Positions 2,709 through 11,360 of a DNA stretch of 11,360 bases are shown here, one piece after another (the first letter of the stretch is position 1; each line of letters begins with the position of its first letter). Source of the DNA: Verrucomicrobiota bacterium (GTDB lineage: Bacteria; Verrucomicrobiota; Verrucomicrobiia; Limisphaerales; CANJXF01); NCBI GenBank assembly GCA_038214755.1, contig JBBQRQ010000129.1, positions 1-11,360 on the forward strand, given 5' to 3'. The notes beneath the pieces were generated by a model. It was given only the letters and a program-made list of their open reading frames with translations, was not told the origin of the DNA and did no database searches. The position numbers and the translations under genes were made by a program.

Positions 2709-3584
2709 TCAAAGTTTTTTTCCGAAGCCCGATTTTGGTTTGCCATCTTTATCGAGTTTGTTGCAGGTCCAAAGCAGGCCGCGCGTGACGAGATCGAGGT
2801 ATTCGTCAGTTTTCATTATCGCATCGAGGTGGCCAAGGGTCGTGCCGAAAACGCGGGACTTGCCGTACGTGTTCACCCAAATGCACGCGTGCTCGTCGGT
2901 TTCATTTTTTGGCGTGAGACTTTTCGCCAGCGGAATGCAGTTCGGCCAAACTTTTTTGATCTCGTAAAGTTCATCTTCGGGATCGTGAAATTTCGCCGGC
3001 CAACCTTTCATGACGGGATGTTCCGGTTTCACGTTGATCACGACAAAAGCGCGTTTGGGCTGGTGACGATACGAACTGACGCCCAGCAGTTTTCGCCATT
3101 CGTCGGTCTCCGCGTCACGATAGCTGTGGATCGAGCAGTGAATCATGACCACGCCGATGCCGTTGGTTTGCGCGCGAGCCATCGCCTCGATGAATGGAAC
3201 GTCAATCACTTTCCCGGAGCATTCGTTATGCACGATCACGTCGTAGCCTTTTGTCCAATCCGGTTTTTCGTAAATGCTGAATTTATGTTCTTTGGCGTCG
3301 TTGTCGCCTTCGTGAATAATTGTCCAGACAACATTGCCATTGGCGCGAGCGCTGATGCCTTCGGTCAAAGTTTTCTTTTGCGCTTCGTAATCGTGACAAC
3401 AACCGCCGGTGATGAGGAGGGCGCGCAGTGGCTCGGCGGATTGGGCGCAGAGTATTGAAAAAAGGAAAAACATCGAACATCCAACATCGAACATCCAACG
3501 CTGAAGTTTTCTGCGCCGAAGCGAGTTTCCCAATTCGATGTTCAGTGTTCGGTGTTCGATGTTCGATGTTGGTTTTTTTTTCAT
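2709..3584 (-). CDS. Secreted ThuA-domain (class I glutamine amidotransferase-like fold) protein
   Basis: 'LRALLITGGCCHDY', 'YDVIVHNEC', 'HCSIHSYR', 'HPVMKG', 'DELY', 'WVNTYGKSRVFGTTLGH'. The ATG overlaps the upstream TGA (ATGA), implying translational coupling. Confidence 0.88.
   Translation of the reverse strand: MKKKPTSNIEHRTLNIELGNSLRRRKLQRWMFDVGCSMFFLFSILCAQSAEPLRALLITGGCCHDYEAQKKTLTEGISARANGNVVWTIIHEGDNDAKEHKFSIYEKPDWTKGYDVIVHNECSGKVIDVPFIEAMARAQTNGIGVVMIHCSIHSYRDAETDEWRKLLGVSSYRHQPKRAFVVINVKPEHPVMKGWPAKFHDPEDELYEIKKVWPNCIPLAKSLTPKNETDEHACIWVNTYGKSRVFGTTLGHLDAIMKTDEYLDLVTRGLLWTCNKLDKDGKPKSGFGKKL
3469..3572. repeat. Two inverted arrays of 7-bp tandem repeats (AACATCG/C x5 and TTCGATG-like x5) in the 5' coding region of the ThuA gene
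   Basis: AACATCG AACATCC AACATCG AACATCC AACGCTG at 3469-3503 and TTCGATG TTCAGTG TTCGGTG TTCGATG TTCGATG at 3534-3568, separated by a 30-bp spacer. Confidence 0.9.
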
Positions 3585-4498: not shown

Positions 4499-4595
4499 AG
4501 ATTTCAAAGTTTTCCGGAGGCGACAACTGAAATATCATGGCCCGTATGGAATTCGCTATGAAATTCTGGGTGTGGGCAGCGAACGGGATGACTTA

Positions 4596-4624
4596 TTGAC
4601 CATTTCCACAAATCGGATTATTTC
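4596..4624 (+). promoter_or_regulatory. Possible sigma70-type promoter for hicBA
   Basis: TTGACC (4596-4601), 17 bp, TATTTC (4619-4624), 7 nt before the ATG. The -10 box is imperfect. Confidence 0.35.
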
Positions 4625-4631
4625 TTTGCCA

Positions 4632-4880
4632 ATGAATTTCGGTATTTTGTTCGAGAAGGTTCAGGATAAGGATTTCCCGCCCGAATATTTTTACGCGCAC
4701 ATTCCAAGTCTGGGGTTGACGACGCACGGTTTAGGAGTTGACGGTGCGCGACAAGCCGCTTTCGATCTGGCGCGACTATGGCTCACCGAAAAAAAAATCA
4801 ATGGCGAATTGGTTCCATCCTCGTCGGAAATTCTTTTTTCAACCCTCGACATTCCTGACGATGCCTTACAAAGCGCGTGA
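4632..4880 (+). CDS. hicB: HicB-family antitoxin (short form, no C-terminal DNA-binding domain)
   Basis: 82 aa; the pattern '[15 protein letters not shown]...D.AR..A.D...LWL......GE.VP' matches the HicB partial RNase H fold. Overlaps hicA by 20 bp. Confidence 0.8.
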
Positions 4881-5067
4881 GGTGCTCAAAAAATTGCAGC
4901 ACGCGGGCTTTGTCATTAAACGACAATCTGGTTCCCACATTATCTTGCGACACAGCGATGGGCGACAAACCTATGTGGCCATGCATCCAGGCGACATTCC
5001 TACCGGAACTTTTCGCGCGATTTTAAAACAAGCCAATCTTAGCGAAGAAGAATTTCGCAATTTGTAA
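4861..5067 (+). CDS. hicA: HicA-family mRNA interferase toxin
   Basis: 68 aa from ATG 4861: '[12 protein letters not shown]...[14 protein letters not shown]...V.MH..DIP.GT.RAILKQA', with the catalytic GSH His intact. Confidence 0.92.
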
Positions 5068-5361: not shown

Positions 5362-6423
5362 CTAATCCGTGTTTGGATACGATCCGAGGACTTTGACGAA
5401 ATTGCATTGCCGTTCCAGATCGGCAATCGCTCTGGCAACTTTTTTGTCATTCACGTGTCCATCACAATCGACAAAGAAAAAATATTCCCACGCTTTGCGT
5501 TTGCTGGGACGCGACTCGATTTTGGTCATGTTCAATTTGTAACGGCGAAAGGCATTCAGCGCCGAGTGCAATGCGCCGACTTCGTGCGCGATGCTGATCA
5601 TCAAACTCGTCCGGTCTTTGCCCGTGGGCGGACTACACTGGCGTCCCAGCACAAGGAATCGCGTGGCATTGGCGGAATTGTCCTGCACAGCATGTTCCAA
5701 AATGGGGAGATGATATTTTTCGGCGGCAAGTTCCCCGGCGATGGCGGCGGAATTTTTTTCGCGCGCGGCAAATTCCGCGGAGCGCGCGTTGGAAGAAGTT
5801 TCGATGACTTCCGCGCTCGGGAAATTTTTCTGCAACCAAAGCCGGCACTGCGCGAGCGTTTGCGGATGGATATAAAACTTTTTGATTTGCGTTTTCTTGA
5901 AGCGGCTCAAAAGGCATTGCTGAATTCGCAAAATAATTTGGGCAACTATTTTTAAATCGCTTTCCACAAACATATCGAGCGTGTGGGTGACCACGCCTTC
6001 TGTGGAATTTTCCACCGGCACGACCCCGTAATCCGCGCGACGCTGGCTGACTTCGGCGAAAACATCCGCGATCGTTTTCTGGGCGGCGTAGCGAAGACTG
6101 GCGCCAAATTTTTGAATGGCGGCCTGATGAGTAAACGTGGCTTCCGGGCCGAGGTAAGCAATCGTCATCGACTTTTCCAGCGAGAGAGCGCTCGACATGA
6201 CTTCGCGGTAAATGGCGCGAAGCGAATCATTGGTGATGGGGCCATCATTGATTTTGCCAAGTCGATTGAAGACCGCTTGCTCGCGATGGGGCGCATAAAT
6301 TTCTTCGCCGGCCTTAAGTTTGATTTCGCCAATTTCCAGAACATGCTTGGTGCGCTCGTTGAGTAGCTTGACGATTTGCGCGTCAAGTTTGTCAATGGAC
6401 TTGCGGTGCTGCGGGATGTTCAT
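5362..6423 (-). CDS. pheA: Bifunctional chorismate mutase / prephenate dehydratase (P-protein)
   Basis: AroQ domain 'R..IDKLD..IV.LLNER', PDT motifs 'IAYLGPEATFT', 'GVVPVENSTEG', 'NATRFLVLG', and ACT domain 'NMTKIESRPS...WEY.FFVD'. ATG at 6423 is preferred because the longer start overlaps the promoter. Confidence 0.97.
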   Translation of the reverse strand: MNIPQHRKSIDKLDAQIVKLLNERTKHVLEIGEIKLKAGEEIYAPHREQAVFNRLGKINDGPITNDSLRAIYREVMSSALSLEKSMTIAYLGPEATFTHQAAIQKFGASLRYAAQKTIADVFAEVSQRRADYGVVPVENSTEGVVTHTLDMFVESDLKIVAQIILRIQQCLLSRFKKTQIKKFYIHPQTLAQCRLWLQKNFPSAEVIETSSNARSAEFAAREKNSAAIAGELAAEKYHLPILEHAVQDNSANATRFLVLGRQCSPPTGKDRTSLMISIAHEVGALHSALNAFRRYKLNMTKIESRPSKRKAWEYFFFVDCDGHVNDKKVARAIADLERQCNFVKVLGSYPNTD

Positions 6424-6433
6424 TGGTGAGCAG

Positions 6434-6463
6434 AGAATAGATAAACAGTAATCCAAGCGTCAA
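6434..6463 (-). promoter_or_regulatory. sigma70-type promoter of pheA
   Basis: Minus strand TTGACG (6463-6458), 18 bp, TATTCT (6439-6434), 10 nt before the ATG. Confidence 0.6.
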
Positions 6464-6478
6464 ATTTCATGACGATTT

Positions 6479-7249
6479 TCAGGATGCGAAAGCGGCAAGT
6501 TCTCTCTCGCGATTGCTCCACAAAATTGGCTTGATGCCATAAGCGGTTAGCGCGGATAGATTTTCCGAGTTCACGTCATTTTCTGCATCGTTAATAAATG
6601 CATAAGCAGCCAAACGTCCCTTGCCCCGTTCCCTTTCAACATCTGAAACCATGAAAGCCAAACTGGCTGCCCTTTCTTTCGTCAGCCGATTTATCGCCTG
6701 AACCACTCCTTCCGGCTTGTTACCGCGCGGGGGCACGGCCATGTCGAACTTGTGATCAAACCCGCTGTAGCCACTCAATTTTACGTCTCTGATAAGAGGA
6801 ACATCTTTCGAACGAAGAAACTTTTCCACGTCTTCTTTAAATAATTGCAGGACTGATTCTTCGCCCATAACAAACATGTCGTTTACTGCGAGAATTGCCT
6901 GAATGAGGTTGTGTTTTCGCTGGGGAAAATCTTCGGGCGTAGTTGCAACACAAAGCTCATCTCCTTCATTACGCACACCAAAACCTTGAAGGATGCTTCG
7001 CAAATGAGCGCGCCGTTTATCAGTATCAAGCGCCACTGAAGAATGACGGAGATCGGTCAAAGTATATCCATCATCTGTGAGCCAAAGCTGATCGTCTCGC
7101 TTCTCGACATAAATTTCTATTTCATCGTTATGACGATCCAAAAAGGGAGTGGCAACCACGCATCCAGCGTCAATTTGTTCAATACGCAAACTTTCTTTGA
7201 GCCACGCAATATAGCCATTAACGAGTTGCTTGCATTCGGCAGTTGTCAT
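6479..7249 (-). CDS. DUF1828 + DUF1829-like protein (C-terminal restriction-endonuclease-like fold)
   Basis: N-terminal 'TPFLDRHNDEIEIYV......LTDDGYTL.DL' and 'KHNLIQAILAVNDMF' (DUF1828-like). C-terminal 'F.EDV..FL....V......LSGYSGFDHKFD' and 'AFIND......S....AL..YGI.PI.WS' (DUF1829-like). Confidence 0.8.
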   Translation of the reverse strand: MTTAECKQLVNGYIAWLKESLRIEQIDAGCVVATPFLDRHNDEIEIYVEKRDDQLWLTDDGYTLTDLRHSSVALDTDKRRAHLRSILQGFGVRNEGDELCVATTPEDFPQRKHNLIQAILAVNDMFVMGEESVLQLFKEDVEKFLRSKDVPLIRDVKLSGYSGFDHKFDMAVPPRGNKPEGVVQAINRLTKERAASLAFMVSDVERERGKGRLAAYAFINDAENDVNSENLSALTAYGIKPILWSNRERELAAFAS

Positions 7250-7252
7250 GAG

Positions 7253-7720
7253 TCAAAGAGTGGTTTGGATTGGTGGCACATTCTGAACGTGGCAGAAATT
7301 TAGAAAATCCACCAGCCACGCCAGCCCATTTGTGTGGTTAGAAACAATGAATTCAGAAACATCCGGTACCAAGTATGCGATGCGATCTTCAAAACCTTCC
7401 CGGTAAAGATGAAGATGAGGGCATGGAAGGCGCTCATTTGGTCGATGAGGAGAGTCCGGTGGGTTCCTATGCGCTGGACCGTCTAAATCCAACCGGGCCA
7501 AAATAACGATTTTGCGCGCGCGAGTTTGATACTTGAGACGAATGCGCTTCCGATTACCGCGTTCAATCGTCAGCAAAAACTCCTCTCGACGATCCTCTGA
7601 AAGTAACACTCGTTCATAGTCCATCGGAGTTGTATTCGTGAATTCCAAGGGAGAATCGTCTCTAAAAAATTTCGGCACGCTCAGTAGCGCGTCAGATTCC
7701 GATTGGGAGATTGCGCTCAT
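7253..7720 (-). CDS. DUF6978-like hypothetical protein (His-rich motif)
   Basis: 155 aa; 'SQSE.DALL...K', 'EEFLL.I.RG', 'KYQTRAR....LARLDL.G..HRNP', 'PHLHLYREGF.D..AY', 'FL.FC.V'. Its stop lies 3 nt before the DUF1828/1829 ATG. Confidence 0.75.
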   Translation of the reverse strand: MSAISQSESDALLSVPKFFRDDSPLEFTNTTPMDYERVLLSEDRREEFLLTIERGNRKRIRLKYQTRARKIVILARLDLDGPAHRNPPDSPHRPNERLPCPHLHLYREGFEDRIAYLVPDVSEFIVSNHTNGLAWLVDFLNFCHVQNVPPIQTTL

Positions 7721-7899
7721 TGTGATTTCGTCTCAGTTACATTTCCCGAATCGTCTTCCAACGCCAATCGTTCCGGCGGTGTAGTACCCAAATCCGCGTC
7801 AACAGTCAAAAGTGTTTCCGGTTTTTTGTCACGATGCGGCGGAGTTTCATCGGTGGCGGGCAAAACGTCCATCCATTCAAAATCCCGAGGCTCAATCAA
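7717..7899 (-). CDS. Small acidic hypothetical ORF or 3' remnant of a lost gene
   Basis: Its TGA overlaps the DUF6978-like ATG (ATGA). Start is TTG 7899 or ATG 7872. No recognisable domain. Confidence 0.3.
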   Translation of the reverse strand: MIEPRDFEWMDVLPATDETPPHRDKKPETLLTVDADLGTTPPERLALEDDSGNVTETKSQ

Positions 7900-7998: not shown

Positions 7999-10900
7999 TT
8001 ATCTCGAAACTTTCAACACGCCATAATCACCCAGCGGAGACCATAATCCGCGATCAACCGAGCCGTCGGCATGTTCGAGATTGGGCCACAAACAATTTTC
8101 TGCCGAGCCGCTGCCGAGAAGTTTTAAAGCCAATGGATTTGAAGCGTCGAACAGTTGCAAATGACTTTCGGTTTGCGCGACGAAAAGTCCGCCGAACAAC
8201 GCGAACGAATCCGCCGCCTCGGCGAGCTTCGTTGAACTGGCGCGAATAAATTTTCCAGAGACGGAAAAATTCCAGGTTTCAATTGCGCCGCTGGAATTCG
8301 CGCCCGGCACGCCAAGAAAAATATTGGTTTCCGCAATCAGCGTCGGGTGCGGCCAATCGGAAGGAAGCGCCAGTGAACTGATGAGCGAGGCGCGCACACC
8401 GTCGTAGGCCAGCGCATCAATCCAAGTGTGATCATCCTGCGCGACGTGCGAGGAAATAGTGTAGAGAATATTTCCTTCGTGCGAAATTCCGGCGAGTGAA
8501 CCGGAAATATTCACGGGATCGCGCAAGGTCGGATTCGTCGCGTCGGTGTAATCAATCACGTCCAGGTAATAACTCTCCATCCAGAGATTGTGACGCGGCC
8601 CGTCATCGAATCCGGTGTGGCTGACATAGACCAGACCGTTGGTGGCGAACGCGGCGTTGTGCGCGCTCCATCCGGCGGAATTTAAATTAAATTCTGAAAC
8701 GAATTTGGGGTTGGCGCTGTCGCTCACGTTGAACGCAACCAGTTCTGTTCCCGCGCCCCCTCCATAAAACCACGGCGGTAAAAAACGGTTCGCTGCAATT
8801 CCAAGAGGAGAAACGGAAGTTCTCACCGTGCCCGACTCAGAAGAAGCAAAGCCTGTGGCCGCCTGTGGCTGCGCGGCGAGCAACATTGGAAAAAACCAAA
8901 ATGAATTCGCGCTTTCCCAAACAAGCAAATCATCGCGCACCCAGAGCGGCGTGAGGTTCCACGCGCTCAACGAATTCGAAAGCGTCGCATCGGTCCGGCC
9001 AAGGATTTCAAGGTTGGGCAGTTTTGTTAGATCGATCACGGTCAGCGCAGCGGAATTGGTTTCCGGGAGCGGATTTCCTGACAGATCAAAACGATAACCG
9101 CTGCTCTGACTTTGCAGCAGATAAAGCAAATCGTTTTTGACGGTGGCTCCGAGAACTGGGAGACCGCCCAAAGACCATTGCGTGACAATCTCGTTGGGCG
9201 ACTCCGCGCGCGCCACGCGAATGGCCACACCATTTTCTCCAGAGCCAAATCCGCGCGCGCCAAATTCCAGAACATAATCGCCGGAGAGAATAACTCGATC
9301 CACCGGCCACGCGAGCGTCAGGTCGCGGGTGATGACGGGATGATCGCGGTCGTCGGCATTGACCGCTAAAAATTCCCAGCCGGAAACAGAAATGATCCGG
9401 TTCTGCGCGAGGGCGGCGCGACGCGGTTGCAGTTTGTGTTCGATGGCGCCGCGAAGTTGCAGGGAATCATTTTTCCAATCGATGAGTTGCACGCGCGAGG
9501 CGTACCCGTTTGAGAAGTCACCTTGATACGGCAATAAAATCAAACCCGCGTCGGGCAGGACGTTGAACGCTTTTTCGTCAGATAGCGCCTCGCTCCACGA
9601 ATAATTTTCGCCCCAAGAAACTCTGCTCAACAACCGTGGTTGCGAGACGTCGCTGACATCGAACAATGAAACGGCCACGCGCCACCCGTTGCTGCTGTCC
9701 TGGCCAATGGTGACGAGGCGATTTCCGACAGGTTCAATAAAAGTAGAATAGCCCGGCACTGCGACGCTGCCTTTGATCGCGGGATGTGATGGGTCAGACA
9801 AGTCAATGATCCAGAGCGGATCGACTTGCTCAAACGTCACGGCGTAAACGCGATTGCCGTCGAAGCGCGTGGCAAAGAGCCGTTCGCCGTTCGCGAAATT
9901 AAGTTCGCCCAATTGATTGGCGCTAAAATGTTGGCCAGTGAAAACGTTTCCAAAATCGTTCCTGCGCCGCCGCCGCGCCCACTATCAACTTCGGAAATCA
10001 CCGTGAGCACGCCGCTTGCGAAATTAATTTTGAATTTATCGGCGACCCGCCCGGCGACTTCCGCCGCGCCGCCGAGACGCATTGTTCCATTCGGGGACGA
10101 TATATCAATGAGGTTGACCCGCGATTGCGAACCAACGTCCCCACCCTGCACCGCGACGAACAAAAAATTTTCCGTGGCGGAAATGACATTGCCATAACCG
10201 TTGAGCCAAATGGTTTCGCGAGCAATGGGCGCAAATGGATTCGACAAATCAAAACTGGAGACGAGCGTGCCCCATTCTCCTATTTTTCCAGCAACCGTGT
10301 TCTGCGCCTGTGAGGCCACGTAAAGTGCGCTGCCCACCAATCGGCTTTCTGCGATCGATCCGCGAACCGAAACGCGAGCGACGATCGCGGGAGTTGTCGC
10401 GGCGACATCAATGACGACCAGTTCACTGTTGCCCGCGCGGTCGCAATCGTTTCGCGCCAGGAGAACAACGTAATTTCCGAGCAGATACATCTGTTCGCCC
10501 GCCGCTGGAAAATTCACGGTGCCGAGCAATGAGGCCGAATCAGGATTGCTGACGTCGAGAATTTGTAATCCGCGATACTGATTGAAATAATAGAGGCGGT
10601 TGCCGCTGATTTTCCAAACGTCAGATTCGACCACGGCGCGAACTGGCGGCAAACCGTTGCCCTGCCCGGCGAGCAGACTCAGGTCGCCAAAACCGGAGCG
10701 AGCCGTCTCCGCGCCGAAAACGCCGGGGACGCGAGAGGCCTTGCTGCGCACGCGCGCAAAAGATTTTTTTCCGCGATAAAATTTGGCGGGCAGTTTATCT
10801 GAGGCGCTGGCGATGAGGCGAAAATTCTGAGGCGTGGCGGATTGCCGGACGCGAAAAACAATCGTCGCTTTGTTTCGATTGAGTCGGCGGAGGTCACGCG

Positions 10901-11123
10901 GTTTCCACGCGCCGAGTTCGTTGGTCCCTCTTGATTCCAGTGTGACCGAGGTGAACCCGGCGGGGATTGACGCGGTGAGGTGGAGATTTGTTCCGACGGC
11001 ACGGATCCGCGTGATGGTGGGCGTTGTCACTCGTTGCGCGGAAGCGGTGAGCGCTGGAACCAACGCCAATGCGAAGAATGCGAGGGGAAACCGGAGGGAG
11101 GAAAATAGATGCGTCCACATCAT
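7999..11123 (-). pseudogene. Large secreted beta-propeller domain protein (COG4880 / Beta_propel-like), frameshifted near 9913-9917; may instead be an intact gene with a sequencing error
   Basis: ORF 9837-11123 has a signal peptide, 'VVESDVWKISGNRLYYFNQYRGLQILDVSNP' and 'VADKFKI...GVLTV'. ORF 7999-9912 continues 'GERLFATRFDGNRVYAVTFEQVDPLWIIDLSDP..P.IKG.V.VPGYS'. Adding one base at CCA ATC AA^ TTG GGC joins them into about 1041 aa. Confidence 0.85.
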
Positions 11124-11230
11124 AACATAAAAGTCCTAGTCATCGAAAAGCTGAAGCTGAGGGAGCTTCGTCAGTCTGCTGGGGAATGGCAAACGAAAAT
11201 GAACTCTGCCCACAGGAGTGCACGGCCAAT

Positions 11231-11359
11231 TCATGAAGATGATTGAAAGCTTGGCTGGCGGGCATGAAGGCAGCGGATGGCGTAGCGATGATGTTCGGCG
11301 TTCATGGCGGTGAAAAAGTCGGTGGTGGTTTTGTGCTGCGGTTTTTTCTGCCGGTTGCG
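11231..11359 (-). CDS. Possible 3' end of an upstream gene running off the window
   Basis: Open frame RNRQKKPQHKTTTDFFTAMNAEHHRYAIRCLHARQPSFQSSS*, co-oriented with the downstream gene. No family recognised. Confidence 0.3.
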   Translation of the reverse strand, partial: RNRQKKPQHKTTTDFFTAMNAEHHRYAIRCLHARQPSFQSSS

Positions 11360-11360
11360 C

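Follow-up and report, generated by a model that had tools for sequence, protein, structure and literature searches.

Genes A and B, the subject of this analysis, lie next to each other in a window of 11,360 nucleotides (nt; positions 1 to 11,360 of contig JBBQRQ010000129.1, assembly GCA_038214755.1) from a Verrucomicrobiota bacterium. The pair is genuine and mobile, and a reasonable candidate for defence; the locus is an ordinary copy of PDC-M24, a candidate already catalogued in PADLOC, and forms a mobile cassette filling a variable slot between scpB and pheA. What is added here is evidence for a toxin-antitoxin (TA) polarity, in which the decay pattern of homologous loci suggests that A is the toxin and B the antitoxin, and the domain folds of gene B. 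The cassette and the edges of its slot comprise the following features:

7253..7720, minus strand: gene A (DUF6978 / PDC-M24A), 155 amino acids, predicted toxin, beta-sheet protein
6479..7249, minus strand: gene B (DUF1828+DUF1829 / PDC-M24B), 256 amino acids, predicted antitoxin; predicted type III secretion system (T3SS)-chaperone/YbjN-fold N-domain (13-131) and C-domain (129-256) with a PD-(D/E)xK fold lacking the lysine of motif III
7717..7899, minus strand: scpB 3' remnant, 60 codons, whose stop overlaps the gene A ATG; left edge of the insertion slot
5362..6456, minus strand: pheA (chorismate mutase / prephenate dehydratase), probable start near 6423; conserved right flank of the slot

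A and B are co-oriented minus-strand open reading frames (ORFs) separated by 3 nt (7250-7252). As proposed in a preliminary description of the window, gene A belongs to Pfam DUF6978 (E 7.5e-28) and gene B carries DUF1828 (residues 34-122, E 4.6e-28) followed by DUF1829 (residues 160-247, E 8.7e-21). That description had presented the pair as a candidate uncharacterised system. The pair is, in fact, already catalogued, and both genes match PADLOC profiles: A matches PDC-M24A (E 9e-38; residues 1-153 on profile positions 1-142 of 146) and the adjoining B matches PDC-M24B (E 6.6e-85; residues 3-253). The suggestion in that description that the pair is a defence candidate was supported. Full-length matching, adjacency, orientation and composition are identical to PDC-M24; the copy studied here differs in lying outside any restriction-modification (RM), BREX or DISARM locus, between the scpB remnant and pheA. 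The PDC set comprises 145 experimentally untried candidates found embedded in BREX, DISARM and RM loci (Payne et al. 2024, bioRxiv 10.1101/2024.01.29.577857), and the main text of that preprint contains no match to 'M24', giving neither a mechanism nor a test for it. In DefensePredictor, too, genes with DUF1828 score as predicted novel defence genes (log-odds 5.6-6.6; Tables S4, S5 and S10 of PMC13092281); its list of tested units (Table S6) contains no match to DUF1828.

The evidence for polarity comes from the way in which the pair decays. We classified 184 loci by hand (30 + 80 + 1 reached from A and 19 + 54 from B), L195 being reassigned from intact to broken, and dereplicated them to 155 clusters. 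The pair was intact in 115; A was broken beside an intact B in 11, absent beside an intact B in 3, and altered by a point change at an invariant residue in 3 more. B was broken beside an intact A in 2, and both genes were damaged in 3. The remainder were DUF1828-only genes without A (3), an ambiguous locus (1) and loci at contig edges (14). Thus, single losses hit A 14 times and B twice (p 6e-5) although B is the longer gene, in counts where related loci are not independent and an 'absent' A may be a very divergent one; with broken genes only, the figures are 11 and 2 (p 7e-4). Moreover, A was damaged in 3/5 loci that had lost B, compared to 17/132 loci with an intact B (Fisher p 0.02), the three lesions being a truncation by an insertion sequence, a change of H104 and a change of R76. 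Taken together, the asymmetry and the damaged A genes at B-loss loci point, indirectly, to A as the toxin and B as the antitoxin, supporting the direction assigned in the preliminary description, with A as effector and B as antitoxin or sensor. Intact B genes also occur as orphans (L070, L120, L123), and the genome that carries the window, G000, has a second, divergent PDC-M24-type cassette (L078:1096-2366, contig C50) in which A is frameshifted and B intact.

The position of the cassette is variable. The pair had been described as AT-richer than its flanks, and its GC content is 0.471 against a genome mean of 0.527 (standard deviation 0.025); of 4022 windows of equal size, 1.9% have the same or a lower value. 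GC at third codon positions is 0.43-0.46, compared to 0.54-0.62 in the housekeeping neighbours. DUF6978 matches were found in 2/41 related genomes and 0/8 congeners, pheA being matched in 38/41, and DUF1828 matches in 19/401 genomes of the phylum. Congeners have the order scpA-scpB-pheA, and their scpB-pheA spacer is empty in two genomes (G001, G005). Judged by the look of the sequences, the spacer of G004 contains a subtilase-like gene and that of G006 a small PIN-like pair, the latter with no Pfam match at 1e-14; G003 has a different gene ahead of pheA. Another verrucomicrobial genome (L034) carries an intact scpA-scpB-A-B-pheA arrangement with the same overlap between the scpB stop and the gene A start. 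The neighbours first noted, pheA and a beta-propeller gene, were present, but the scpB remnant between gene A and the propeller gene had been overlooked. Conservation as syntenic core genes, named in the preliminary description as a finding that would speak against such a system, was not what the lineage showed: among relatives of two aconitase-slot carriers the pair was matched in 1/40 and 1/31. It is therefore cargo of patchy occurrence that enters recurring slots and does not belong to the core genome. Purifying selection acts on both genes (pN 0.12-0.16 versus pS 0.73-0.91 against 4 close loci), and one contig of sequencing run X1, possibly the source sample, covers the cassette and the propeller gene with zero differences. 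Apart from the scpB tail at 7717-7899, tblastn and profile searches of G000 (97% complete) detected neither scpA nor scpB. The genome does have an SMC hinge gene; scpA and scpB were either lost or fall in a gap of the assembly.

Elsewhere, the DUF6978 + DUF1828/DUF1829 pair is widespread and mobile, its homologues lying behind prophage repressors, beside RM genes or behind housekeeping genes. B follows A in 30/30 A-anchored genome loci. As to co-localisation with defence genes, 7/30 of these loci have a credible defence neighbour within three ORFs, RM genes in 5 of the 7. The closest clade is found mostly behind housekeeping genes and not in defence islands. Gene B occurs in 19 phage records. 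In the five opened it lies behind a repressor in 5/5 and ahead of an integrase in 4/5, and 4 of the 5 have a confirmed A-type ORF upstream of it. An integrase or repressor neighbours 18/40 dereplicated viral loci (62/119 neighbours submitted). Some viral contigs (L132, L133/L134 and L139, near 3000-3450) carry a short DUF1828-only gene without A, the L132 copy among recombination genes; such genes could be antitoxin mimics or remnants. The pair also forms a third clade that has diverged very far (L074-L077) and whose A has no Pfam match; in L076 a DUF3037 gene directly follows B.

The motifs quoted in the preliminary description are present in both proteins: R76-L-D78-x5-H84-R-N86-P87 ... P101-H102-L-H104-L-Y106 in A, and G160-x-S-G-x-x-H166-x-F-D169 with Q184-A-I186 in the C-domain of B. 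Among A homologues K17, R76, H84, N86, H102 and H104 are near-invariant. The predicted structure of A found no match among solved structures, which, in so widespread a candidate pair, gives the family its interest. The predicted folds of B are T3SS-chaperone/YbjN for the N-domain and PD-(D/E)xK restriction-endonuclease-like for the C-domain, with Can2, Card1 and Cdn1, nucleases activated by signals, among its best fold matches. With positions assigned from secondary structure, its (D/E)xK motif is not canonical, residue 184 being mostly Q and 186 hydrophobic in 68/68 alignment rows, and the motif-III lysine occurs in 0/68; this agrees with the degenerate nuclease fold first proposed. Folds and loss asymmetry together indicate which gene to test for toxicity and which residues to change.

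We tentatively favour, from these sequence data, a type II TA pair with an anti-phage role, in which A would be the enzyme toxin and B the antitoxin and possibly the sensor. A would be a histidine-dependent enzyme, most likely an RNase, given its histidine motif and weak family hints; B would bind and silence it, probably via the chaperone-fold domain. Once set free by a phage product or by the shut-off of the host, A would arrest the infected cell. The family hints concern TumE-TumA (DUF6516) and Ntox24, which share with gene A a small size, a beta-sheet structure and a D..H..HxH motif region; Ntox24 is reported in type II TA systems (PMC3482391). The TumE profile (PF20126) gave no match to gene A; the best member scored 20.4 bits against a cut-off of 23.4, and one of 119 members had a sub-threshold match on the motif region (E 5e-4). 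With Ntox24 (PF15529), 7/119 members matched on that region at E<=1 (best E 0.003), and the ones scored singly did not exceed 17.2 bits against a cut-off of 24. The link to TumE is thus a sub-threshold hint only. The layout also differs, A lying upstream of a 256-residue two-domain partner whereas TumE is described as mostly downstream of a small antitoxin (PMC10584680). G000 itself holds a TumE-family gene with a small upstream partner (L084:1082-1773, contig C89).

By analogy, the nearest working model is HipAD (DS-6, PDC-M66), reported as a validated two-gene defence system of a HipA kinase and a partner carrying DUF3037 and DUF1829 (PMC13092281). In both systems DUF1829 sits in the second of two genes, and that of HipAD has been proposed or shown to neutralise its partner; deletion of the DUF3037 gene in such a HipA pair is reported to be toxic (PMC12548924). 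HipAD differs in that its toxin is a kinase and its partner's N-domain is DUF3037, where gene B has DUF1828. HipA kinase and DUF3037 families did not match A or B. The sequence comparison of gene B did not detect the kinship, which therefore rests on published annotation. Should the DUF1829 parallel prove true, the loss asymmetry and the domain folds would tie two defence families together by a shared antitoxin domain.

Several observations weigh against an anti-phage TA pair. The asymmetry rests on hand calls in assemblies that may contain errors; in the A-anchored loci alone it falls to 5 versus 2 (p 0.08, non-significant), and two loci, L170 and L159, go the other way, B being broken and A intact. 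The supposedly catalytic residues of A are not universal either: one phage clade has E in place of R76, the Javan249 protein lacks the HxH motif, and H84 is absent from clade 3. No profile match of A to TumE rose above shuffles, and the hhalign probability was 0.2% against a 6-sequence TumE alignment, with the motifs aligned in register; B, compared with two DUF3037 proteins, showed no more similarity than shuffles did. The figure of 7/30 defence neighbours stands without a background rate, and aconitase precedes the pair in 6/8 of the closest loci. B keeps E139, D140 and D169 in 67/68 rows and D221 in 65/68, and might therefore be active as a nuclease of a non-canonical kind. Literature searches found no functional study of the pair, nor any experiment on it.

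A doubtful elaboration of the anti-phage TA pair would make DUF6978 a new-fold histidine RNase toxin within a wider TumE/Ntox24-like superfamily, gripped by the chaperone fold of B, with the dead restriction-endonuclease fold as a phage sensor shared with HipAD and the phage DUF1828-only genes as antitoxin mimics that phages turn against the system.

The same loss asymmetry would be expected of a selfish addiction module, in which A and B are toxin and antitoxin but their persistence depends on post-segregational killing, or on the stabilisation of prophages and islands, and not on protection from phage. The closest clade behind aconitase or scpB, the PIN-like pair in the same scpB-pheA slot of G006 and the hicA gene on the other side of pheA fit this possible but rather unlikely explanation; the recurrence of the pair in prophage repressor-integrase regions and beside RM genes, the choice of PDC systems for their embedding in BREX, DISARM and RM loci (10.1101/2024.01.29.577857) and the DefensePredictor scores of DUF1828 genes (PMC13092281) argue against it. 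We also think it unlikely that the pair is a two-component defence system without TA character, where the effector would be B, as a non-canonical PD-(D/E)xK nuclease with its chaperone-fold domain as the gate, and A would be an activator or signal-making enzyme, neither toxic alone. The conserved acidic residues of B, its fold matches to Can2, Card1 and Cdn1, and the two loci that keep A without a whole B are consistent with such a nuclease, but the motif-III lysine is in no row, and harmless genes would take lesions by length, more often in B, instead of 14 versus 2. Finally, a non-toxic accessory pair (for example in prophage regulation or nucleic-acid processing), with B able to act alone and A dispensable, is improbable: the orphan B genes, the 3 viral clusters whose DUF1828-only genes lack an A, and the variation of the supposed catalytic positions in divergent clades suit it, but the excess of damaged A genes where B is lost and the strong purifying selection on A do not.

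The second TA module noted beyond pheA is supported by a HicA toxin match (E 2e-19) in 4572-5067; its 102-residue upstream partner (4572-4880) had no Pfam match. The position downstream of pheA also differs among congeners, and G000 contains about a dozen hicA-like matches. The beta-propeller gene is read in two overlapping frames, 7999-9912 and 9837-11123, which match the start and end of one Pfam profile, suggesting a frameshifted single gene; run X1 showed no variant there. The last 140 bp of the window (11221-11360) are a repeat that recurs where 7 other contigs end; its depth is about ten-fold, and it is likely the end of an insertion sequence.
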